From: an uncultured Gammaproteobacteria bacterium
GTDB lineage: Bacteria; Patescibacteriota; Microgenomatia; UBA1406; HO2-37-13b
NCBI GenBank assembly: GCA_964612595.1
Contig: CAZTFB010000002.1
Span: forward strand, 252,933 to 316,932
Direction of reading: 5' to 3'
DNA: 64,000 nt
A model generated the notes under the pieces. The model was not told the origin of the DNA. It searched no databases and saw only the letters and a list, made by a program, of their open reading frames with translations. Positions 4,636-52,887 of the stretch are shown piece by piece. The stretch's first letter is position 1, and every line of letters begins with the position of its first letter. The translations under genes were made by a program, and so were the position numbers.

Positions 4636-5022
4636 TCACTTTCTTGACTTTGGCTTTTGGAACGTTTTGAAGATAACGTAAAGAACTATGAGTATGCCAA
4701 CCGTATCAATCAAAACATCTCGTACAGTACCGCTTCGCGTCGGCACATACATCTGATGAAGCTCGTCAGATGCTGCGTATGTAATCGATATAATTCCAGC
4801 AAGTCTTATAGCACTCATCACATGATGTGTAAAAGTATTATACAAAGCATTAAAAAGAAGCCCAGCTAACAATCCATACTCACACATATGTAGTATTTTG
4901 AAGATGAGAAAGTCCTCAAGTGGTTCACCGGTTGCGGTAAAACGAGGCTGTGAAGAAAGATAAAAGATAATCGCCATCCAAGCCAACGGTGGTAACCAAT
5001 ACAACATCTTTTTATTACTCAT
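4636..5022 (-). CDS. VanZ-like family membrane protein
   Basis: Four hydrophobic helices and a C-terminal ASDELHQMYVPTRSGTVRDVLIDTVG motif typical of VanZ-like proteins. I took the start at the Met of MSNKKMLYW; the maximal ORF extends to 5046. Confidence 0.6.
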   Translation of the reverse strand: MSNKKMLYWLPPLAWMAIIFYLSSQPRFTATGEPLEDFLIFKILHMCEYGLLAGLLFNALYNTFTHHVMSAIRLAGIISITYAASDELHQMYVPTRSGTVRDVLIDTVGILIVLYVIFKTFQKPKSRK

Positions 5023-10482: not shown

Positions 10483-11232
10483 TTACACGCGGAAAAACGT
10501 CCCAACAAGATAAGCTACTCCTGCAGAAATACTGCCAATCATAACTGTTTCGCCAACAGAACGCAGGAAACTTTGATTGGTAACCTTCCAGCGAAGCAGA
10601 CCAAGCGTTAAAAGCGCTGCAAAGGTGAAGGTAAGCGACAAGACAAACTCATTTCCAAGAGCTCCTCGGAAAAGGACATAAGGAACAAGTGGAATAAGTC
10701 CAAAGATCATAAATGATGTAGCGGTGACGATACCGGTTAGCAGTGGATTTTCACTGAGTGGGTTAGTCATTTCGAGTTCTTCTTTCATCATAAATTCAGT
10801 CCAATACTCATTATTTGTTGCGTACAGTTCTGTTATTTGATCGGCTTGCTCTTTAGTAAAGCCTTTTGCGACAAGCATATGTCGTGTCTCTGCTTTTTCA
10901 AATGCAGTATTGTGTTCAATTTCATGTCGTTCTTTTTTTTGCTCTTTTTTATACACATCCTGATCAGCTCGTACCGAAAGAAAGTTGCCAAGCCCCATAG
11001 AACTTGCGTCACCGAACAGATTAGCAAAGCCAAAAAGTAGCACGGTGACGATAGGAATAGAAGCATCAACGCCACCAGCTTGAGCTCCAGAGAATCCTGC
11101 AACAACAGCGAATGTGGTAACAATGCCATCGATGCCGCCGTAGACGATTTCTTTTAGATAGGTCGAAAATGGTGAAATTTCGTGTTCGTGTTGGAGATGT
11201 ACACTAAATTCTTCAGAGGTTAGTTTTTTCAT
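10483..11232 (-). CDS. VIT1/CCC1-family iron/manganese transporter
   Basis: YLKEIVYGGIDGIVTTFAVVAGFSGA motif, a central cytoplasmic helical segment rich in Glu/Lys, and three C-terminal TM helices. Confidence 0.8.
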   Translation of the reverse strand: MKKLTSEEFSVHLQHEHEISPFSTYLKEIVYGGIDGIVTTFAVVAGFSGAQAGGVDASIPIVTVLLFGFANLFGDASSMGLGNFLSVRADQDVYKKEQKKERHEIEHNTAFEKAETRHMLVAKGFTKEQADQITELYATNNEYWTEFMMKEELEMTNPLSENPLLTGIVTATSFMIFGLIPLVPYVLFRGALGNEFVLSLTFTFAALLTLGLLRWKVTNQSFLRSVGETVMIGSISAGVAYLVGTFFRV

Positions 11233-20728: not shown

Positions 20729-21352
20729 ATGAAAAATCTCTCAAAATTAGAGTTTCCTATAGCTGCGGTTTTGGTTCTCCTTGGTCTTTTTATGATGTTA
20801 ACGGGGTATCAAAAGGTTTCCCAAGAAATGGTAACTGGGAAAAACCAGCCTTTCGTCACCAACTTTAAACACGCCGATAAAATTATTGCGGCAAAAATTA
20901 TCACGGCAAAGCCAACCATCGACAAGCTCTCAGTTCCTGTTGATCAACCTGTGTTTGAGAAGGTGTATGTAACCAACTTCGATTATATTTCGGAGCTTTC
21001 TGATATTACGATTGGCAAAGATATGGATGGACATATTACAGAGGGCAAAACGAGAGCTGTGGTCAAAGCTCATTATGATACAGACCAAAAACTTTTTAAG
21101 TTGTATGGGACATTCGCACAGATGCCAAAGCTCAGAGAGGGATTTTATTATGAGGGTTGGCTTGTACGCCGTGAGCCATTCAGTATGATAAGCACAGGTA
21201 AGGTTGTTATGATTGATGAAGAGTTAACGAACGTTTATGTGTCTGAGGCAGATCTGCGTGACTACGACTTCTTTGTTTTGACACTTGAACATAATGATGG
21301 CGATCTAGATCCTGAAGTAGAAATACTCGAAGGTCAATTCAAGAAAATATGA
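20729..21352 (+). CDS. membrane-anchored protein with RskA-C-terminal-like extracytoplasmic domain (no anti-sigma N-domain)
   Basis: N-terminal TM helix. The C-terminal GFYYEGWLVRREPFSMISTGKVV...FFVLTLEHNDGDLDPEVEILEG resembles the RskA C-domain pattern (Y-x-x-W-L ... s-x-G ... v-T-x-E-p-x-g-G ... P ... il-x-G). By-eye match only. Confidence 0.4.
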   Translation: MKNLSKLEFPIAAVLVLLGLFMMLTGYQKVSQEMVTGKNQPFVTNFKHADKIIAAKIITAKPTIDKLSVPVDQPVFEKVYVTNFDYISELSDITIGKDMDGHITEGKTRAVVKAHYDTDQKLFKLYGTFAQMPKLREGFYYEGWLVRREPFSMISTGKVVMIDEELTNVYVSEADLRDYDFFVLTLEHNDGDLDPEVEILEGQFKKI

Positions 21353-23010
21353 TCTTATTCGTTTTCGCGTTTCTAGCCGGCATTGTTACCATACTTTCTC
21401 CATGCATACTCCCTATTCTACCAATTGTACTTTCTGGTTCGTTTTTAAGTGGAACACATAGACCTCTTGGTGTGATTATCGGATTTATTACAAGTTTCAC
21501 TTTTTTTGCCGTATTCTCTTTTTCATTAGCGCGGGCTCTTGGCCTATCAACAGAAGTGCTTCGAAACCTTGCGGTTGTGTTGCTTATTCTATTTGGGTTA
21601 ACTACTTTTGTACCGCGTCTCCAGCTCTATCTCGAACTACTAACATCTCGATTTAGCTCAATAGGACAAGGTAAAACAAGAACTGGATTTACGGGGGGAT
21701 TTATAATGGGAATCACGCTTGGCCTTATCTGGACACCATGCGTTGGTCCGATACTTGCTTCTGTATTAACTTTAGCAGCTACCAGTCAGATAACACTCCA
21801 ACTTATATTGATTACGTTTTCTTACTCACTAGGAACCGCACTGCCTCTTTTTTTCATCGCGTATGGAGGAAAAAGAGCGCTCTCAACATTGCCCGTACTT
21901 AAAAGAAACGCAGAAAAAATCCAGAAAATATTTGGTGTATTGATTATCATAACCGCATTGCTCATATACTTTAATCTTGATAGAAAATTCCAATCATACA
22001 TTCTTGATGTTTTTCCTCAGTATGGTCAAGGACTTACTACGTTTGAAAACAACGAGCGCGTCAATACTGCGCTTGATAGATTAAAAAATGATGAAGAAGT
22101 GACTCTGAGCGTAGCTCCAAACAAAAATTTTGATGGCGCAACGCGTTGGCTTCAGTCTGAACCACTCACACTGGATAGCCTCAAAGGTAAGGTTGTTTTG
22201 GTTGATTTCTGGACTTATACATGCATTAACTGTATTCGCACCTTTCCCTATCTTACCTCTTGGTATGAGAAGTATAAGGATGATGGGTTTACCATTATTG
22301 GCGTCCATACGCCTGAGTTTGAGTTTGAAAAGAACGAAAATAACGTGCGCGAAGCATTGGAAGAATACGGCATAACCTATCCTGTTGTTCAGGATAACGA
22401 GTATAAGATTTGGAATAGCTACAAAAATCGCTACTGGCCGGCACATTACTTGATCGACAAAGACGGTAATATACGCTATACGCACTTTGGCGAGGGTGAA
22501 TACGAGAAGACAGAAAAAACGATACAGATGCTTTTAAGCGAAATGGGCAAGGAGGTTGATAAGGATCTTGTTACTATCGATGAATCGGGTCCTACATCGC
22601 GCGTAACACCAGAGACATACTTAGGTTATGATCGCATGGAGCGCTTTGCGTCGAAGGAAAAAATCCAACCAGATGTTCAGACAAAATATTCGATTCCTTC
22701 ATATATTGAAGACGATTTTTTCGCATTTGGAGGTAATTGGACGATAATGCCAGAATATTCAGAATCGACCAAGGGCGCAAAAATCGAGCTCGCCTTTCAG
22801 GCAAAAAATGTATTTCTTGTTATGAGACCAAAAGATGTACAAAAGCCTGGAAAAGCAAGTGTCTATTTAGATGGAAAACTGGTCGCGACAATCACCGTTG
22901 ATAAGGATCGACTGTACGATATTTTGAAACTAAATGAAAAAACATCAGGACGTGTTACAATTCAGTTCGACGATGAACACATCCAGGTATTTGCATTCAC
23001 CTTTGGTTAA
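21349..23010 (+). CDS. DipZ-like fusion: CcdA/DsbD-type membrane thiol-disulfide transporter, thioredoxin-fold domain and C-terminal beta-rich domain
   Basis: TM-embedded Cys motifs ILSPCILPILP and IWTPCVGPIL, then a redoxin domain with WTYTCINCIRTFP, then a further ~150-aa C-terminal domain. ATGA overlap with the upstream gene. Confidence 0.8.
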   Translation: MILFVFAFLAGIVTILSPCILPILPIVLSGSFLSGTHRPLGVIIGFITSFTFFAVFSFSLARALGLSTEVLRNLAVVLLILFGLTTFVPRLQLYLELLTSRFSSIGQGKTRTGFTGGFIMGITLGLIWTPCVGPILASVLTLAATSQITLQLILITFSYSLGTALPLFFIAYGGKRALSTLPVLKRNAEKIQKIFGVLIIITALLIYFNLDRKFQSYILDVFPQYGQGLTTFENNERVNTALDRLKNDEEVTLSVAPNKNFDGATRWLQSEPLTLDSLKGKVVLVDFWTYTCINCIRTFPYLTSWYEKYKDDGFTIIGVHTPEFEFEKNENNVREALEEYGITYPVVQDNEYKIWNSYKNRYWPAHYLIDKDGNIRYTHFGEGEYEKTEKTIQMLLSEMGKEVDKDLVTIDESGPTSRVTPETYLGYDRMERFASKEKIQPDVQTKYSIPSYIEDDFFAFGGNWTIMPEYSESTKGAKIELAFQAKNVFLVMRPKDVQKPGKASVYLDGKLVATITVDKDRLYDILKLNEKTSGRVTIQFDDEHIQVFAFTFG

Positions 23011-23783: not shown

Positions 23784-24488
23784 CTACAGCTGAGAAGCAT
23801 CCTGATCAAGCGTAAATGCTATCGTGACGTTTATAGATTCGTTTTGTAGCGTGAGTGAATCTTCGACACGTGCATTGAGCCATAACACAGCTTCGGTTCC
23901 AGCTGAGATACCACCAAATTCTTCTCCTGGTTCAAATCGTATCTTATCGACTATAGCTAGTTCAGACAGCGAAATCTTATTATCTCGTGGTGTGCCATCC
24001 GCACCATCAACTGTGTTGATCGAGAATGGACTTCCCGAAATGCCTTGGAAAATTCTGTAGTCAACATCGGTACTGCCAAAAAGTGTCGTAAGTAGATTTA
24101 TTGAGGTAGTATCGCCTGAGCCACTGCCAAATCGGAAGCCATTGTTCACCCCATTAAAAACGATTTTCTTTGCAAGTTCCTGACTTCCGGTATAGCTAAA
24201 TTTTACGTCGAGATGGTGTGCGTTCGCGACACCGTTATTACGAATTTTTATGGTCGATTCGGGAAGTTGGGCGCCTGGCAGTAAGCCAGAAGCAGTCCAG
24301 CTATTTGATATTGTGACAATCTTTGTTTCGTTCGCATCGGTTAATACAGCATCAATACCACCCGTTGAGATAATGTTGTCTTTTGATGTCGCTGTGCTGC
24401 TGAAGAATGCTCCTGAAAAGCCAATAAGACCGGCTATAAAAAGCATTATGAGCAAGATCGTGTTTTTCATGTATTTCATATGTTTCAC
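23784..24488 (-). CDS. secreted TasA/CalY/camelysin-like protein with SipW-type signal peptide
   Basis: The N-terminus MKNTILLIMLFIAGLIGFSGAFFSSTATSKDNIISTGGIDAVL matches the SipW-dependent signal pattern (hydrophobic core then A-y-F-s-d-t-x-t-s-x-x-N-x-f-x-t-G-x-x-d). The rest is predicted beta-rich. It lies directly downstream of a SipW-like peptidase. Confidence 0.6.
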   Translation of the reverse strand: MKHMKYMKNTILLIMLFIAGLIGFSGAFFSSTATSKDNIISTGGIDAVLTDANETKIVTISNSWTASGLLPGAQLPESTIKIRNNGVANAHHLDVKFSYTGSQELAKKIVFNGVNNGFRFGSGSGDTTSINLLTTLFGSTDVDYRIFQGISGSPFSINTVDGADGTPRDNKISLSELAIVDKIRFEPGEEFGGISAGTEAVLWLNARVEDSLTLQNESINVTIAFTLDQDASQL

Positions 24489-24531
24489 CTCCTTTCTAAC
24501 CGCATTGTAAAAAACTAACCTTAAATTCTTA

Positions 24532-24885
24532 TTAACGAATACGACCTTTTGAAAAGAAAATTGATGTGTGCAAAATGCTTATGACGACTCCATCTATTTG
24601 TTCCCTAAATACAATAAAGCTGTCCGCTTGTTTATTGCTATCTCCCTTCGTTATATGTGAAGAACCGCTTTGTTGTATAACTCTGTGTGTTATGTGTTGT
24701 GAATTTTGTGAATGGAATGTAATTATGTCGCCAACTCTATACGAATGTCTGCGTGTTGTCACCACTATATCTCCTGCAGATATGGTTGGGTACATAGAAT
24801 CGGAAGTAATGATAAAAACGCCAATATATTTTCTTATCACGAGGAATCCTACAATCACCACAAGCATTAATACAAATTCTTTCAT
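24532..24885 (-). CDS. sipW: signal peptidase I, ER/archaeal (S26B, SipW-like) type
   Basis: N-terminal TM helix, Ser motif TSDSMYPTISAGD, His motif HITHRV and a conserved TKGDSNKQAD box. At 117 aa it is short for the family. Confidence 0.75.
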   Translation of the reverse strand: MKEFVLMLVVIVGFLVIRKYIGVFIITSDSMYPTISAGDIVVTTRRHSYRVGDIITFHSQNSQHITHRVIQQSGSSHITKGDSNKQADSFIVFREQIDGVVISILHTSIFFSKGRIR

Positions 24886-24956
24886 AGCGATAGGTTACTT
24901 TGAAGATATTAAATAATTCTGTACAATGAAGCTGTTACTCATTTTTATTTACCTAT

Positions 24957-25136
24957 ATGGATAATTCAGACATGGATATAGATGCACCAATGACACATCA
25001 AGAAGCTCATTGTGATTGCGGAGACGAGTGTAGTTGTGGAGAAGATTGCACCTGCAAATCAGGCGGTTGTAGATGTCAGGATGCTGCAGAAGCCTGCTGC
25101 AAAGAAGGCGGATGTGTGTGTCACGTTGCGATGTAA
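24957..25136 (+). CDS. 59-aa Cys-rich metallothionein-like protein (below the ORF-track cutoff)
   Basis: From the ATG at 24957 to the TAA at 25134-25136 it translates as MDNSDMDIDAPMTHQEAHCDCGDECSCGEDCTCKSGGCRCQDAAEACCKEGGCVCHVAM. It has 12 Cys, five C-x-C pairs and one CC. A TTGAAG-N16-TACAAT promoter-like pair lies at 24900-24927. Confidence 0.55.
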   Translation: MDNSDMDIDAPMTHQEAHCDCGDECSCGEDCTCKSGGCRCQDAAEACCKEGGCVCHVAM

Positions 25137-25137
25137 G

Positions 25138-26190
25138 TTATTTTTTCTGCATTGCTGCTATACCAGTCGTTATCGGTACGGCGAGCATGAGTCCTATGCT
25201 TGCTACTAAGGTCCTCACGATTTCTTCAGAGATCATCTCATAGTTAATCGCCGTGCTTAATGTCTGTTCATTCACAATAAACATAAGAAGAAATGGGAGC
25301 GCCGCACCTGTATACACAAGGATCAACGTATTAACGACAGAACCTATATGATCCTTCCCGATATCCATTGCCTGCTTATACAACTCTTGAAAAGATAAAT
25401 GGGGAGCATTTTCTTTTAGTTTGAATACGATTGCGGCCTGAGAAACCGTTACATCATCAAGAATCCCCAGAAGCCCCACAATAATACCAGCGAGCAACAA
25501 GCCCTTCATATTTAAACTTCCCTCAACCATGGCAGTAAGAAACGTAGCGTCTTCTGTTGCGAAGCCTGTCAGATGGGCAAAATCGATTGCACAATAGGCG
25601 AGAATGCCGGTAATTGCGAGAGAAATGATCGTGCCAAGCGCTGCTGAATGTGTTTTTCTATTAAAACCATGTGATGCATAGTAGGTCACGGGGACAGTCA
25701 TAACACCCGTCATCAATGCAGCCATAATAGGGTTTTGTCCACTTAATATTTGAGGTAAAAGATATTTAAAAATGACGAAGAAGGTAAACATCATACTTAG
25801 TAGCGCCGCAATACCCCGTTTTCGTGCTATGAGGATTGTGCAGACAATAAAAAGCAGCCCGAGCATCATCAATGCCTCACGCCGTACATAGTCGACGACA
25901 AAGTATTGTGACTCGCCGAGCCCATTATCAACCTTTGCAACGATGACTTTATCACCGACCTTATAGTTCCTTCCTTGGGTGATTTGCGAGGCATAAGGGA
26001 ACGTGGTTGAGCGATTTTTATCTGGCCCAGTTAAAAACTTAACCGTCACCGTATCTGAAAGCTGTTCGATTATAGCTTCCTGTTGCTCCGGCATTTTAGG
26101 TTGAACGTAATCTGCCTCTTGAGCTTGAGAGGCAATAGGCGAGAGGAGCACGGTAAGCATTAAAATGAACCCAACAAGAAATCTTCTCAT
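25138..26190 (-). CDS. YibE/F-family membrane protein
   Basis: Signal/TM, a small extracytoplasmic domain, then about 7 TM helices with segments (PVTYYASHGFNRKT, DDVTVSQAAIVF, GKDHIGSVVNTLILVYTG) typical of YibE/F. Confidence 0.7.
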   Translation of the reverse strand: MRRFLVGFILMLTVLLSPIASQAQEADYVQPKMPEQQEAIIEQLSDTVTVKFLTGPDKNRSTTFPYASQITQGRNYKVGDKVIVAKVDNGLGESQYFVVDYVRREALMMLGLLFIVCTILIARKRGIAALLSMMFTFFVIFKYLLPQILSGQNPIMAALMTGVMTVPVTYYASHGFNRKTHSAALGTIISLAITGILAYCAIDFAHLTGFATEDATFLTAMVEGSLNMKGLLLAGIIVGLLGILDDVTVSQAAIVFKLKENAPHLSFQELYKQAMDIGKDHIGSVVNTLILVYTGAALPFLLMFIVNEQTLSTAINYEMISEEIVRTLVASIGLMLAVPITTGIAAMQKK

Positions 26191-26284
26191 AGTATTATGA
26201 TACTACATTCATCACTTGACAAAGCCTCAAAAATGTACTTAAATGAGTTAGCTTGAGTTCAATTGAAAGGAGGTGCAACAAAAC

Positions 26285-26488
26285 ATGGATATCGAATTTT
26301 ACGACGTAAAAAATAGAAAGAAAGTAAAGGTTCCTGCAAGTCAGGTCCAAAAAGTTAAGTACGAAAGAACCACCAAATCTGGTTCCCACCAAGTGAGATA
26401 CGCTGTTAAGGCTATGCTCGATGGTGTGAAATTGACAAAGTTTGTCAGTAAGGATATGTGGGACGGTCTTGATGCCCCAATGGCATAA
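26285..26488 (+). CDS. small basic protein, unknown family
   Basis: 67 aa from the ATG at 26285: MDIEFYDVKNRKKVKVPASQVQKVKYERTTKSGSHQVRYAVKAMLDGVKLTKFVSKDMWDGLDAPMA. The strong SD GGAGGTG ends 9 nt upstream. The tracked start at 26273 is a GTG inside the SD. Confidence 0.45.
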   Translation: MDIEFYDVKNRKKVKVPASQVQKVKYERTTKSGSHQVRYAVKAMLDGVKLTKFVSKDMWDGLDAPMA

Positions 26489-26618: not shown

Positions 26619-27368
26619 TTAGTCGGCGTGTACGAATGTCTGTGAGAGGAGAATGATGAGGGCTATACCGAGGAGAAAGGGTAGAATATGTGGCGCAATA
26701 TTTTTGTTTTTCTGCTCTCTATGGAGCTCTGGAATAAGATCGGCGGCGGCGATATAGATAAAGATGCCGCCGGCAACTGCAAGAATATTATGGGTGAAAC
26801 TTTCAGTTTGAGAAAGAAAATAGTAGCCTGTAATACCTCCTGCAACGGAAGTAAGGCCTGAAAGAAAATTAAGCATCAAAGCTTTCTTTCTCTGTATGCC
26901 TACATGAAGCAATACTGAAAAATCTGCGATCTCCTGAGGAATTTCATGTGCGATGATAGCGATTGTTGTAGTGATACCGAGGGCGGGGCTTGCAATAAAG
27001 CTTGCGGCGATGGCGAGTCCGTCTACAAAGTTATGGAGCGCATCGCCGAAGAGCACAAGATACGTGGTGGGGTTGGTTCCATGGGTATCGTTGTGATGGT
27101 GATGGTGCCATAAAAATTTCTCAAGAATGAACGCTCCTATGATGCTCCAAAAAACGAATTGGAGTGCGGTAGAGGGCTCTAAATGCTCGAAAGCTTCGGG
27201 GAGTATGGTAAAAAATGCGGCGGTGAGCATGACGCCTGCGGCGAAGCTGACGAAGAGATTGGTGTTTTTTTGGGTGAGGAATGTTTTTTTAAAGAAAACA
27301 GCGAGTCCAGCGAAGCTGATGAGGCTTACTAGTATGTTGGCAACTACGATCTGAAATAGCATATCCAC
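26619..27368 (-). CDS. zupT: ZIP-family divalent metal transporter (ZupT-like)
   Basis: HNFVDGLAIA and HEIPQEIADFSVL signature helices, with a His-rich loop WHHHHHNDTHG. Confidence 0.85.
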   Translation of the reverse strand: MDMLFQIVVANILVSLISFAGLAVFFKKTFLTQKNTNLFVSFAAGVMLTAAFFTILPEAFEHLEPSTALQFVFWSIIGAFILEKFLWHHHHHNDTHGTNPTTYLVLFGDALHNFVDGLAIAASFIASPALGITTTIAIIAHEIPQEIADFSVLLHVGIQRKKALMLNFLSGLTSVAGGITGYYFLSQTESFTHNILAVAGGIFIYIAAADLIPELHREQKNKNIAPHILPFLLGIALIILLSQTFVHAD

Positions 27369-27851: not shown

Positions 27852-28175
27852 ATGTCAACACAACCAGGTACTAACAAAATGAAAATTGGTCAGATAATAA
27901 AAAACGCTAGAAAAGAGGCCGGTTTATCTCAAAGAGAGTTTGCAAAAGCGCTACACGTATCCGATAAGACGGTTAGTTCCTATGAGGTGGGGAGAATAAC
28001 ACCAAAATTTGAGACTATCAAACAAATGAGTAGAGTGGTTGATAAGCCAATTACGTATTTTGATAATGATAGTGGACACACAATGGATGAGTCTGAGCTT
28101 GAATCAAATCTAAAAAAGATAGAAATGGAACTAATCGAGATTAAGAAAATTCTTCAAAAGAGAAAAAAGAGATAA
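27852..28175 (+). CDS. XRE-family helix-turn-helix transcriptional regulator
   Basis: IGQIIKNARKEAGLSQREFAKALHVSDKTVSSYEVGRITP is a canonical HTH_3 motif. The C-terminal helix is a likely coiled coil. Confidence 0.8.
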   Translation: MSTQPGTNKMKIGQIIKNARKEAGLSQREFAKALHVSDKTVSSYEVGRITPKFETIKQMSRVVDKPITYFDNDSGHTMDESELESNLKKIEMELIEIKKILQKRKKR

Positions 28176-49103: not shown

Positions 49104-49152
49104 TTGACAGATGTGATTGCTCTTTGGTACTATATCCCCATAGGGGGGATAT
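49104..49152 (+). promoter_or_regulatory. sigma70-type promoter (TTGACA-N18-TACTAT) overlapped by a CsoR-type GC-core palindromic operator
   Basis: TTGACA at 49104-49109 and TACTAT at 49128-49133. The inverted repeat ATATCCCC-ATAG-GGGGATAT spans 49132-49151, with the csoR ATG at 49153 two nt beyond it. Confidence 0.6.
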
Positions 49153-49425
49153 ATGGCATACAAACCAACAACAGAAAAAGAGCGCATACTACACCGGCTT
49201 AAAATTGCCCAAGGGCATCTTCATAAGATTATTTCTATGGTTGATGATGATCAATATTGTATCGATGTACTGCATCAATCCGACGCAGTCCAAAAGGCAT
49301 TACAGAATGTTGATAGTATTATTCTTGAAAATCACTTAAAAACGTGTACTGCAAATGCGATCAGCGAGGGGAGAACCGAAGAGGCGATCGCAGAGGTAAT
49401 GAATGTTTTTAAAAACAAACGGTAA
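49153..49425 (+). CDS. csoR: CsoR-family copper-sensing transcriptional repressor
   Basis: 90 aa. [36 protein letters not shown]...LKTC has the C-H-C metal-ligand pattern of the CsoR/DUF156 family. Confidence 0.85.
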
Positions 49426-49426
49426 T

Positions 49427-51673
49427 ATGACAAAGAAAACTTTTGATGTAAAAGGAATGCATTGCGCGTCATGCGTATATGTTGTTGAGAAAGCTTTGAA
49501 AGGCGTCCCTGGTGTGCAGGGAGCCGTTGTAAATTTAGCTACAAACAAGGCTACCGTCGAATGCGCAACTAATGTAGAAGAAAAAATACTCACCGATGCA
49601 GTGGCCAAAACTGGCTATGCGCTTGCTCCTATTGAACATAAAAGTTCAGAGAGGACGATGCCCGCTGGTCACGATCATATGGCGATGATGGAAGCGGACA
49701 ATCTAAAAGAACACGTTGTTACTTCTATAGTGTTTGTCGCCATTAGTGTCCTGATTATGGTCATTGATCTTTTTATGATGCCAAGTCATACCGTTAAGGA
49801 ATTTTTACATCATCTTATGCCTATTATGGCAACATATATGATGTTTACAGTTGGACGACAATATATTGCTGGTGTTGGAAGATTTATTCGCTATAAACGA
49901 GCAGATATGGATGCGCTTGTTGGGATCGGAACGCTTGTTGCGTTTATATATAGCTTTGTATTAACTGCGTTTGAAGAACCTTTGAGCGCATATGTTGATG
50001 TTGAACATACGTATTATGAAATTGTTATTGTTGTTATCGGACTCATTACTCTGGGAAAATTTTTAGAAGCGCGTGCAAAGTCACACACATCAGGGGCCAT
50101 TCAAAAACTAATTGGGCTTCAAGCAAAAACAGCACGGGTCTTACGCGATGGAAAAGAACTAGATATTGCGATTGGCGAAGTTGTTGTTGGCGATCTAGTG
50201 CGTGTACGCCCTGGTGAGAAAATTCCGGTAGATGGCATTATAACTGAAGGAGCATCGACTATTGATGAATCGATGGTAACGGGGGAGAGTATGCCCATCG
50301 ATAAAACGGTGGGAGCACAGGTTATTGGTGCAACGATGAATACATCCGGGACCTTTATTATGAAGGCGACAAAGGTTGGTGCCGACTCGATGCTTGCACA
50401 GATAATAAAACTGGTCGAAGACGCGCAAGGATCTAAAGCACCCATTCAAAGACTTGCTGATGTTATTTCCTCTTATTTTGTCCCTGCTGTCCTCATTATT
50501 GGAGCGATGACGTTCTTTGGCTGGGTGCTTTTAGGCGGCCCACAGGGTTGGGTTTTTGGTCTATACAGCATGATTTCTGTGCTTATTATCGCATGTCCTT
50601 GTGCAATGGGTTTGGCTACGCCAACAGCAATAATGGTTGGTACGGGAAAAGGCGCTGAAATGGGAGTTCTAATTAAGGACGCAGAAAGTCTAGAGATTGC
50701 ACATAAAATTCAAACGGTTGTTTTTGATAAAACTGGCACACTAACAACAGGGAAGCCAGAAGTTACCGATGTTATTGCCTTAGGGAAAGATCATACGGAA
50801 CATGATATTGTACAACTTGCCGCATCTCTTGAAAAAGGATCAGAACACCCGCTTGCGGAGGCAATAATAAAAAAAGCTGCATCACAAAATCTCCCGCTCA
50901 AAAAAATAGATGGTTTTTCTGCTCGCGCTGGTCGTGGAATCGAAGGATCAATTGGAGACAACCAACTTTTCTTTGGCAACAGAAGACTTATGGATGAAGA
51001 AAACATAAGCATCTCCTCATCGATTGAATTGATCGAAAAACTTGAAGGACAAGGGAAAACAGTTATGATGCTTGGGAGAAAAGGAAAGCTTGTCGGAATA
51101 TTGGCTGTTGCAGACGTAATAAAGCCTTCTGCAAAAGAAGCTATAGAGATGCTTAATGCAAAGCATATTGAGACCATTTTGCTCACTGGAGATAATAAGA
51201 AAACCGCAAATGCTATTGCACAACAAATTGGTATTGAACGTGTGCTTGCTGAAGTTTTACCAGGTGAGAAAGAGGCACAGATTAGAAAACTACAAAGAGA
51301 AGGTCGCATTGTAGCAATGGTTGGCGATGGCATCAATGATGCCCCTGCACTCGCCGCCGCAGATATCGGTATAGCAATGGGCGGCGGGACCGATGTCGCC
51401 ATTGAGGCAGCTGATATTACACTTGTTAACAAAGATGTTCGTTCTGTAGTGCGCGCTATCGAACTTTCAAAAAAAACGATGCGCACCATAAAAATGAATT
51501 TGTTCTGGGCTTTCGGGTATAATGTAGTACTGATTCCAGTTGCGATGGGTGTTCTGTATCCATTTACAGGCTACATGTTGAATCCCATCTTGGCATCAGT
51601 CGCAATGAGTTTATCATCGATTTCAGTAGTTACGAATTCGCTCTTATTAAAAGGATCAAGATTTAAGAGTTGA
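49427..51673 (+). CDS. copA: copper-translocating P1B-type ATPase
   Basis: HMA domain GMHCASC, TGES, CPC ([13 protein letters not shown]), [26 protein letters not shown] at 49427 is 1 nt after the csoR stop; the tracked start is 49403. Confidence 0.95.
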
Positions 51674-51683
51674 TCAAACATCT

Positions 51684-52670
51684 ATGGATTTGTGGACAGT
51701 TTTCATAACAGGATTACTTACCGGAGGCTTGTCGTGTCTTGCGGTGCAGGGTGGCCTTCTTGCTGCTTCATTAGCACAGAGTGATGAGTATATAGGCGAG
51801 AGAAAGCTACAAAAATCGCATCATATACTCCCTATCCTATCTTTCCTTGTCGCAAAACTTATTGCCTATACTGCATTTGGATTTCTCCTAGGGTGGTTGG
51901 GTTCATTTTTCCAGCTTTCCTTAGGTATGCAAATATTTATGCAATTGTTTGTTGTTATTTTTATGTTTGGGACAGCGATGAGCATTCTCGACGTGCACCC
52001 CATATTTCGCTACTTTGTTATTCAGCCACCTCGATTCTTAACAAAGCTTGTGCGCCAACAATCGAAAAGTAAAAGTATGTTCGGTCCAGCTATATTGGGA
52101 GCGTTTACCGTTTTTATACCTTGTGGTACCACACAAGCTATGATGGCCCTTGCTATTGCATCAGGAAGCCCGATACTTGGTGCAACAATACTATTTGTGT
52201 TTGTTTTGGGTACATCTCCGTTATTTTTTACTCTTGGTTATCTTGCAAAAAGACTTGGTGCAACAACAAACAAGCGACTGATGCGTATTACCGCAGCAGC
52301 ACTTGTGTTACTTGCACTTATAAATCTAAATAATGTGCTTGCGCTTTCTGGTAGTGATCTTGCCGTATCTTTTAGTAAAACTGACAAACCTCAAGGCCCT
52401 TCAGTATCAGAAGCGGTGATCGAGTTTAATGAAACAACCTATTCACCCGACAACATTACGGTTAAGGCAGGTTCAGAAGTTACTCTGAAGCTAAAAAATA
52501 CCGCCGGATCTGGTTGTATTCAGGCGTTTACCATTCCAAAGCTTAATATTCAAACAATAGTGCCTGTAGGCTCAGAAGAGGACATAACATTTACTGCACC
52601 AAGTACTCCAGGCAAGATTGCCTTTATGTGTAGTATGGGTATGTACCGAGGTGTTATAAACGTATTGTAA
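51684..52670 (+). CDS. DsbD_2/TauE-like membrane protein fused to a C-terminal cupredoxin-like domain
   Basis: N-terminal GLLTGGLSCLAVQGGLL and FIPCGTTQAMM within about 6 TM helices. The C-terminal TYSPDNITVKAGSEVTLKLKN...GCIQAF...KIAFMCSMGMYRGVINV has the cupredoxin-like Cys/Met pattern. Sits between copA and copZ. Confidence 0.55.
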   Translation: MDLWTVFITGLLTGGLSCLAVQGGLLAASLAQSDEYIGERKLQKSHHILPILSFLVAKLIAYTAFGFLLGWLGSFFQLSLGMQIFMQLFVVIFMFGTAMSILDVHPIFRYFVIQPPRFLTKLVRQQSKSKSMFGPAILGAFTVFIPCGTTQAMMALAIASGSPILGATILFVFVLGTSPLFFTLGYLAKRLGATTNKRLMRITAAALVLLALINLNNVLALSGSDLAVSFSKTDKPQGPSVSEAVIEFNETTYSPDNITVKAGSEVTLKLKNTAGSGCIQAFTIPKLNIQTIVPVGSEEDITFTAPSTPGKIAFMCSMGMYRGVINVL

Positions 52671-52671
52671 T

Positions 52672-52887
52672 ATGAAAAAAATTACCTTAAAAATAGATGG
52701 AATGCACTGCGCAAGTTGTCCCATTATGATCGATGGAAAACTTGAGGATGAGGTAGATGGTGTGGTGAGGGCGGAAACGCACTATGCACAACAGCTTTGT
52801 GAGGTTGAGTACGATGAAAACAAGACGCACGAAAAGGCGATCTTAAACGCTATTCAGAATATAGGCTACGCTGCTGAAATTATTTAG
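52672..52887 (+). CDS. copZ: copper chaperone CopZ (HMA domain)
   Basis: 71 aa with GMHCASC in a beta-alpha-beta-beta-alpha-beta-size protein. 1 nt after the preceding stop. Confidence 0.85.
   Translation: MKKITLKIDGMHCASCPIMIDGKLEDEVDGVVRAETHYAQQLCEVEYDENKTHEKAILNAIQNIGYAAEII

Follow-up and report, generated by a model that had tools for sequence, protein, structure and literature searches.

A conserved small gene of Patescibacteria predicted to encode a cysteine-rich, metallothionein-like peptide

The cysteine-rich reading frame and its locus

The DNA analysed here is one stretch of 64 kb from a Microgenomates/Woesebacteria-type member of the ultra-small Patescibacteria, referred to throughout as the window. 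On its plus strand, at 24957..25136, a reading frame runs from an ATG at 24957 to a TAA at 25134-25136 and encodes the 59-aa product MDNSDMDIDAPMTHQEAHCDCGDECSCGEDCTCKSGGCRCQDAAEACCKEGGCVCHVAM, identical in its coordinates and in all 59 residues to the open reading frame put forward in the original prediction. The frame is missing from the ORF track of the window; we list it as the coding sequence of a Cys-rich peptide on the basis of the sequence, the orthologues and the selection tests described below, with its length counted from the most upstream ATG. The 12 cysteines are arranged as C19xC21, C25xC27, C31xC33, C38xC40, C47C48 and C53xC55, histidines stand at positions 14, 18 and 56, and the residues F, W, Y and L are absent. 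The five C-x-C pairs, the single CC and the flanking histidines were thus all found as described, and our search of the peptide for a signal peptide, which had been said to be lacking, or for a hydrophobic stretch found neither. The 59-aa form weighs 6.2 kDa, its pI is 4.15, and Asp, Glu and His abound in the N-terminal extensions; an acidic N-terminus had been noted earlier. Across the peptide forms the product is a single small polypeptide of 48 to 59 aa (<10 kDa), of which cysteine makes up 20 to 23 % of residues; aromaticity was 0.00 in the three variants for which it was computed, and F, W and Y are absent from all 7 variants of the protein alignment (A4).

To put the cysteine content into perspective, we generated 100 Markov-1 random sequences of 64 kb and recorded the richest 45-aa stop-free stretch of each. 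The frame holds 12 cysteines in such a stretch, against a maximum of 9 and a mean of 7.2 in the random sequences, and it is the top Cys outlier of the 64-kb window. Its cysteine density exceeds what is expected by chance from composition.

No in-frame ATG, GTG or TTG was found upstream of 24957, and two further start codons lie downstream on the same strand. Initiation at the ATG at 24972 would give 54 aa beginning MDID; this methionine, part of an MD(I/M)D motif, is common to the closest relatives, L032 and L017. The ATG at 24990 would give 48 aa, and the 52-aa forms of the orthologues begin three residues ahead of H14. The true start codon is ambiguous among 24957, 24972 and 24990, which leaves the conserved core from H14 to H56 (24996..25124, plus strand; alignment A4 with 7 distinct protein variants) unaffected. 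The core follows the pattern H-x4-CxC-x3-CxC-x3-CxC-x4-CxC-x6-CC-x4-CxC-H, and its predicted metal ligands are the 12 invariant cysteines and the 2 invariant histidines. An AF2 model of the peptide reached a pLDDT of 52, with no confident fold and no predicted helices; such a low value is consistent with a peptide that would fold around metals, but is equally uninformative.

A promoter-like element TTGAAG-N16-TACAAT was located at 24900..24927 on the plus strand, upstream of the gene as had been pointed out. The promoter consensus taken alone is within chance (9 sites found versus 7.4 expected), and the -35 hexamer TTGAAG with its 16-nt spacing is confined to the window, L017 and L032. The block ATATTAAAT-N5-TGTACAAT at 24906..24927 is kept in all eight orthologous loci, and its exact sequence is unique within the window; it is the conservation of this block across loci, and not the hexamer match, that makes the promoter credible. 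A Shine-Dalgarno site was not found at the peptide gene, which is unremarkable because such sites are rare among the genes of the window, about 5/49 of which are preceded by GGAG, GAGG or AGGA. In many window genes a TATAAT-like box stands 6 to 12 nt ahead of the ATG, which suggests that the mRNAs of the organism are predominantly leaderless or short-leader. No terminator-like site was found at the end of the peptide gene, a scan of the entire window with Rfam returned one tRNA only, and an operator common to the promoters of the peptide gene, the ZIP gene, the YibE/F gene and the cop operon was sought and not found.

Divergent from the peptide gene lies a gene for a SipW/archaeal-type signal peptidase I-like protein of 117 aa (24532..24885, minus strand; TIGR02228, 2.7e-20), which is conserved in synteny beside the peptide gene and for which we propose no functional link. 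Convergent with the peptide gene is a gene for a YibE/F-family membrane protein (25138..26190, minus strand; PF07907, 4e-74), whose stop codon lies 1 nt from that of the peptide gene in the window; the tail-to-tail gap is 0 to 1 nt across loci. A ZIP/ZupT-like metal importer with the His-rich loop HHHHHNDTH is encoded at 26619..27368 on the minus strand (PF02535, 9e-42), about 1.5 kb from the peptide gene. In the conserved gene order, TruB, a protein of ~231 aa and the SipW-like peptidase precede the peptide gene, which is followed by YibE/F, a 67-aa protein and ZIP. The window proteins that were scanned include no Fur, ArsR or MerR protein; the regulators closest to the peptide gene are an XRE-type HTH protein (at 27852) and a two-component system.

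The SipW-like peptidase gene is followed, within 23784..24885 on the minus strand, by a gene for a secreted protein of 234 aa that has no family match. This pair is conserved in all relatives and is reminiscent of SipW and its cognate substrates of the TasA/camelysin type.

Conservation of the gene and selection on its frame

At least eight distinct orthologues occupy the equivalent position in Woesebacteria/Microgenomates genomes and metagenome contigs (loci L001, L002; L014 to L016; L017, L018; L019, L020; L032; L038). The original prediction had named interruption or loss of the frame in close relatives as evidence against it; among the matches listed, the homologue is intact and syntenic in each close relative that spans the position. 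The set comprises eight nucleotide versions and seven protein variants, plus near-identical ones, and the variants are 50 to 63 % identical to the window peptide. L032 is Microgenomates bacterium OLB23 (GCA_001567245.1, LMZU01000022.1), in which the peptide gene lies at 4673..4846 and has a 57-aa product. L038 is the closed 0.94 Mb chromosome OZ246401.1, which is collinear with the window over a 16-kb stretch, so that the gene is retained in a relative with a genome of this size. The YibE/F protein of the window is 74 % identical to a protein of a Candidatus Woesebacteria MAG, and the peptide gene is lacking in distant relatives (L003; L034 to L037).

Across the variants all 12 cysteines as well as H14 and H56 are invariant, and so are D20, G28, D30, K34, G36, E45, G51 and V54 (alignment A4). 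The codon alignment revealed switching between TGT and TGC in 9/12 Cys columns, with Cys always encoded. Variable alignment columns at codon positions 1, 2 and 3 number 12, 15 and 32, respectively. The pooled pN/pS over 15 pairs was 0.25 in the Cys frame, which is stop-free, and the synonymous excess was significant in each of four pairs tested separately (Fisher p 1e-5 to 1e-9). In the other frames pN/pS was 1.57 (+1), 1.05 (+2) and 1.41 and 2.12 (two antisense frames). The antisense -1 frame gave 0.34; it contains stop codons, and its wobble positions coincide with those of the coding frame. Conservation of the frame under purifying selection had been proposed as a check, and with this pN/pS and the variation concentrated in third positions the codon alignment places the Cys frame under purifying selection. 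We are all but certain that 24957..25136 is a real, conserved gene.

The ORF track of the window had instead suggested a different frame, 25012..25209, which as described earlier exists and runs into the convergent YibE/F gene: it has a GTG start, encodes 65 aa and lies in the +1 frame, antisense into YibE/F. This +1 frame is open throughout the region in all relatives, and in LMZU01000022 it was the frame picked by the gene caller; together with the absence of both a Shine-Dalgarno site and a terminator at the peptide gene, these observations could be read to mean that the Cys frame is a chance ORF, that the +1 frame is the real product or that the region is a conserved non-coding element. 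We consider any of these barely credible. The pN/pS of the +1 frame is 1.6 to 2.2, so that the possibility raised beforehand of 25012..25209 being the conserved frame is not borne out, and its products cannot be aligned as a conserved protein; in the window the +1 ORF extends antisense into YibE/F, and the Rfam scan gave no match in the region. The Cys frame itself has the low pN/pS, the third-position variation and the synonymous Cys codon switches given above, and the selection tests led us to reject the reading that there is no gene. The +1 frame stays open because of codon composition only, its product not being conserved. A Cys-sensing attenuator leader peptide was likewise rejected, as no further gene follows the peptide gene on its strand; it is further opposed by cysteines that do not stand in a run and by selection on residues other than Cys.

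Existing annotation of the family shows how easily such a gene is passed over. In the OLB23 record the call is a 46-aa product at 4698..4838 in the +1 frame, and the 57-aa Cys-rich product is uncalled. Database entries of 62 and 67 aa start at an ATG within the peptide gene's own -10 box; this upstream ATG is not conserved in L001, and the N-terminal extension of these entries is false. The locus thus exemplifies an annotation blind spot, in which a gene below the usual length cut-offs is met by wrong-frame or over-extended calls. In the OLB23 record the YibE/F gene also appears split (237 + 76 aa), by a frameshift or an assembly error.

The family is small. When 1.84 billion representatives were searched exhaustively with phmmer, only two clusters came back, both of them unnamed members of the peptide family, and the named family entries in the databases read 'hypothetical protein'. 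A word-index homologue search that used just the window peptide as query gave no match, whereas the alignment query did match. Relatives were found neither on plasmids (tblastn) nor on viral contigs (scan), hence there is no sign of mobility.

Comparison with known metallothioneins and other cysteine-rich peptides

The characterised bacterial metallothioneins are essentially of the SmtA/BmtA type plus MymT, and what marks the group is that its members are small, rich in Cys and form metal-thiolate clusters (PMC7558416, PMC7387436, PMC13578184). The peptide has every sequence-level feature of this operational class, for which a Cys share of about 15 to 30 % in CxC, CC or CxxC motifs is usual. 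We performed Pfam and NCBIfam scans with the peptide and 5 family members, at E values up to 10, and obtained no match, the metallothionein models of Pfam included. PDB sequence searches, both with the single sequence and with a profile, found no metallothionein chain and nothing significant; the best match, which is not significant, was the pre-SET Zn3Cys9 region of EHMT2 (E = 0.03). In Smith-Waterman comparisons with six known metallothioneins, run against 500 composition-preserving shuffles and serving as a lead rather than a database test, the peptide showed no similarity beyond composition to SmtA, MymT, Cup1, Neurospora CuMT and wheat Ec-1 (z = 0 to 1.8) and a marginal one to the beta-domain of human MT2A (z = 2.9; 6/500 shuffles as good). 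Members of the family reached z = 14 to 22 in the shuffle test.

The SmtA/BmtA family (PF02069; Synechococcus SmtA, Pseudomonas PmtA, Anabaena NmtA) is alike in that its members are small (~55 aa) and cytosolic and have Cys and His as ligands, which in the peptide are predicted ones, and SmtA resembles the peptide in its presumed role, Zn buffering or detoxification, and in a presumed multinuclear Zn cluster, which in SmtA is Zn4Cys9His2. The peptide differs in having 12 cysteines in regular CxC pairs, whereas SmtA has a different pattern of 9 cysteines, aromatic residues and a zinc-finger-like core, the latter two of which the peptide lacks. The loci differ as well, since the cyanobacterial smt locus has a divergent SmtB/ArsR repressor and the peptide locus a divergent SipW-like signal peptidase, and so do the hosts, the phylum of the peptide being Patescibacteria. 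We rejected membership in SmtA/BmtA, as hmmscan returned 0 families at E up to 10 and no match to 1JJD was obtained; the statement of the original prediction that the arrangement does not match this family is thus upheld by the Pfam, NCBIfam and PDB searches and by the Smith-Waterman comparison (z = 0.9).

MymT, the Cu(I) metallothionein of Mycobacterium tuberculosis, is alike in being tiny, Cys-rich, lineage-restricted and encoded by an ORF that annotation had missed, and it too has CxC motifs. It is copper-induced, whereas the peptide promoter is without a CsoR-type operator, and the neighbour genes of the peptide suggest Zn, in contrast to Cu for MymT. Membership was rejected on a z of 1.8 with 36/500 shuffles as good and on a CsoR operator found solely at the cop operon. 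Csp copper storage proteins, which are Cys-lined four-helix bundles of ~120 aa, were rejected as well, since the peptide is 59 aa long, is without predicted helices and was matched by nothing in PDB or Pfam.

The animal beta-domains (human MT2A), Neurospora CuMT and yeast Cup1 share with the peptide CxC pairs spaced 3 to 6 residues apart, spacer residues that are small or charged and the absence of aromatics, and the stretch CSCGEDCTCKSGGCRC resembles CSCAAGDSCTCAGSCKC. An invariant terminal His, by contrast, is a feature of the peptide and not of animal beta-domains or fungal Cu-thioneins. The comparison suggests that the CxC likeness is a matter of convergence rather than homology. Considered as a whole, the peptide likely belongs to a third bacterial metallothionein lineage, of a CxC-pair type that appears unrelated in sequence to SmtA/BmtA and MymT. 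If this is true, the lineage would have evolved independently and would be the first of its kind from the Candidate Phyla Radiation; our text search of the literature found no functional link between metallothioneins and Patescibacteria.

Small, Cys-rich and variable in the length of its N-terminus, the product might also be taken for the precursor of a modified or secreted peptide, be it a RiPP (SCIFF/ranthipeptide or lanthipeptide), a bacteriocin or a disulfide-rich effector, and the divergent neighbour is indeed a signal peptidase gene. This is very improbable. The precursor families in NCBIfam and Pfam gave no match, and the conserved neighbourhood, as seen at 8 loci, holds no radical-SAM, LanM, YcaO or transporter gene. 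The peptide is devoid of a signal peptide and a hydrophobic stretch, the 52-aa forms have ~9 residues ahead of the first Cys, too short for a leader, and the signal peptidase pairs with the adjacent secreted protein of 234 aa.

A local motif, CxC-G-x-D-CxC, is common to the peptide, to pre-SET Zn3Cys9 modules and to CxCGxDCxC tails. Those modules and tails belong to larger proteins, whereas the peptide is encoded by a free-standing gene with its own promoter, and the matches are not significant. Eleven metagenome loci among the matches listed (L021 to L031) were rejected as family members, since they encode unrelated proteins with CxC-rich tails.

Among these metagenome proteins, CxCG(D/E)(D/N)CxC repeats are appended to otherwise unrelated sequences (L021/L022, L023, L029, L031, L024/L025/L027). 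The repeats occur at the C-terminus of an HxlR-like regulator and of a HisRS-like protein and at the N-terminus of a GrpE-like protein. Further CxC repeats lie between NrdD-like and glutaredoxin-like domains and in loops of high-GC membrane proteins. From their sequences, these appended repeats may be modular metal-binding Cys clusters.

Candidate metals, partners and functions

The small size, the Cys content, the CxC and CC motifs, the absence of aromatics, the conservation of the cysteines and a cytosolic product with flanking histidines commit us to a metal-thiolate peptide, and we regard it as probable that the peptide forms such clusters. The suggestion of a small metal-buffering protein made beforehand gains support from the invariant Cys and His residues and from the composition, from which the binding of metal would follow. 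Overall, a translated gene for a cytosolic metallothionein-like peptide, likely buffering Zn(II) delivered by the ZIP importer, is the account that we favour by a modest measure. According to this account, transcription would proceed from the conserved ATATTAAAT-N5-TGTACAAT block and translation would initiate without a Shine-Dalgarno sequence, as is normal for this genome. The 12 cysteines and two histidines would then enclose several metal ions in a single metal-thiolate cluster or in two; if Zn4Cys11 and Zn4Cys9His2 clusters are a guide, the 14 ligands might bind about 4 divalent ions (Zn or Cd). In this way the peptide would buffer or store Zn(II) imported by the neighbouring ZIP. What we infer here comprises the metal binding, its stoichiometry, the preference for Zn and the link to ZIP.

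Zn(II) is favoured because of the invariant His residues, the Asp/Glu/His-rich N-termini and the conserved ZIP with its HHHHHNDTH loop, and the N-terminal extension of the OLB23 peptide carries THDTHETH. That Zn is the main physiological metal nevertheless remains a tentative assignment, with a chance slightly short of even. ZIP is present in every peptide-gene locus long enough to show it and is a putative functional partner of the peptide. Among the loci listed, this linkage is confined to one narrow syntenic clade and is not phylogenetically independent. In L003 a ZIP of 37 % identity adjoins YibE/F and the peptide gene is absent, and L034 to L037 have YibE/F and the 67-aa gene without ZIP and without the peptide gene. 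YibE/F in turn is absent from the L017/L018/L038 lineage, where the peptide gene, the 67-aa gene and ZIP are retained. A phylogenetic test of co-evolution with metal genes is weak because the family is so tiny, with 2 clusters among the 1.84 billion representatives. Thus of the genomic context that had been invoked in favour of metal buffering, the presence of YibE/F and ZIP nearby is confirmed, but it lends less support than had been stated, with YibE/F dispensable in one lineage and ZIP linked in one narrow clade.

The main rival to Zn(II) is Cu(I). The peptide could be a Cu(I)-thionein analogous to MymT that binds ~6 to 8 Cu(I) by its 12 thiolates and acts alongside CopA and CopZ, or else a thionein for the detoxification of Cd or other heavy metals; we judge this rather unlikely. 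Fungal and mycobacterial Cu-thioneins are typically short, single-domain Cys peptides rich in CxC (PMC7558416), and the genome has a complete csoR-copA-copZ operon. The cop operon, encoding CsoR, CopA, a DsbD-cupredoxin protein and CopZ, is located in the window at 49153..52887, as had been claimed; as context for the peptide it counts for less than had been stated, for it lies 24 kb from the peptide gene and its operator is absent there. This CsoR operator, ATATCCCCATAGGGGGGATAT at 49132..49152, occurs nowhere else in the window, and nothing like it was found at the peptide promoter, either in the window or in the orthologues. Copper is further disfavoured by the invariant His, by the Asp/Glu/His-rich N-terminus and by the ZIP neighbour, all of which favour Zn, and by a similarity to MymT that is compositional (z = 1.8).

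The operator of the cop operon is a near-perfect CsoR-type operator, ATATCCCC-ATA-GGGGGGATAT, placed between the -10 box and the start of the operon. The fusion of DsbD_2 with cupredoxin within a cop operon is unusual.

The invariant non-ligand residues D20, G28, D30, K34, G36, E45, G51 and V54 suggest a defined surface or fold, and this raises a reading in which the cysteines serve something other than a metal store, for instance as a structural Zn module for a partner such as YibE/F, ZIP or some regulator, as a metallochaperone, in metal sensing or in thiol redox buffering. The non-significant match to the pre-SET Zn3Cys9 region (E = 0.03) and the tail-to-tail packing on YibE/F, with its gap of 0 to 1 nt, point in the same direction. 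Against a partner module, the peptide gene is unchanged in the lineage that lost YibE/F, and in no homologue is a partner domain fused to it; the invariant Gly, Asp and Lys between the Cys pairs are usual in true metallothioneins too, which commonly have such residues there. A function of this kind appears doubtful. We would rate equally low a more specific variant of the Zn account, in which the peptide is a dedicated metallochaperone or gate that exchanges metal directly with ZIP (and with YibE/F where present). Should that variant be true, it would open a first way into the function of the uncharacterised YibE/F family, and a minimal three-gene module would manage scarce metal in the genome-reduced, host-dependent Patescibacteria. 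If, on the other hand, the peptide buffers metal as we propose, even genomes of ~0.9 Mb would retain a dedicated intracellular metal buffer. The peptide offers a compact 12-Cys/2-His scaffold for metal-binding studies.

Several further observations concern the surroundings of the peptide gene. Upstream of ZIP, ~35 nt before its start, a perfect inverted repeat TGCAATT-N7-AATTGCA is present in L001, L002, L014 and L019; it overlaps the ZIP promoter in these relatives with 52-aa forms of the peptide, and neither the window nor L017 has it. This repeat may be a candidate operator for some metal-responsive repressor. Elsewhere in the window, a VIT1-family (Fe/Mn) transporter is encoded at 10483..11232 on the minus strand, and a DsbD-TM/thioredoxin/Thioredoxin_10 fusion at 21349..23010 on the plus strand, upstream of TruB.

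Finally, the region 26191..26488 beside YibE/F encodes a small basic protein of 67 to 71 aa (26273/26285..26488, plus strand). It is 62 to 96 % identical across Microgenomates, with 78 database matches that are unnamed or 'hypothetical', and searches of Pfam and PDB gave no match. Upstream of its gene stands TTGACA-N17-TTAAAT, followed by a leader that ends in AAGGAGGTG, and this upstream region is near-invariant even though the flanking proteins of relatives are only 74 % identical. The gene has one of the very few strong Shine-Dalgarno sites in the genome, and its start is probably the ATG at 26285 rather than the GTG at 26273. The protein is likely to be very highly expressed and nucleoid- or ribosome-associated.
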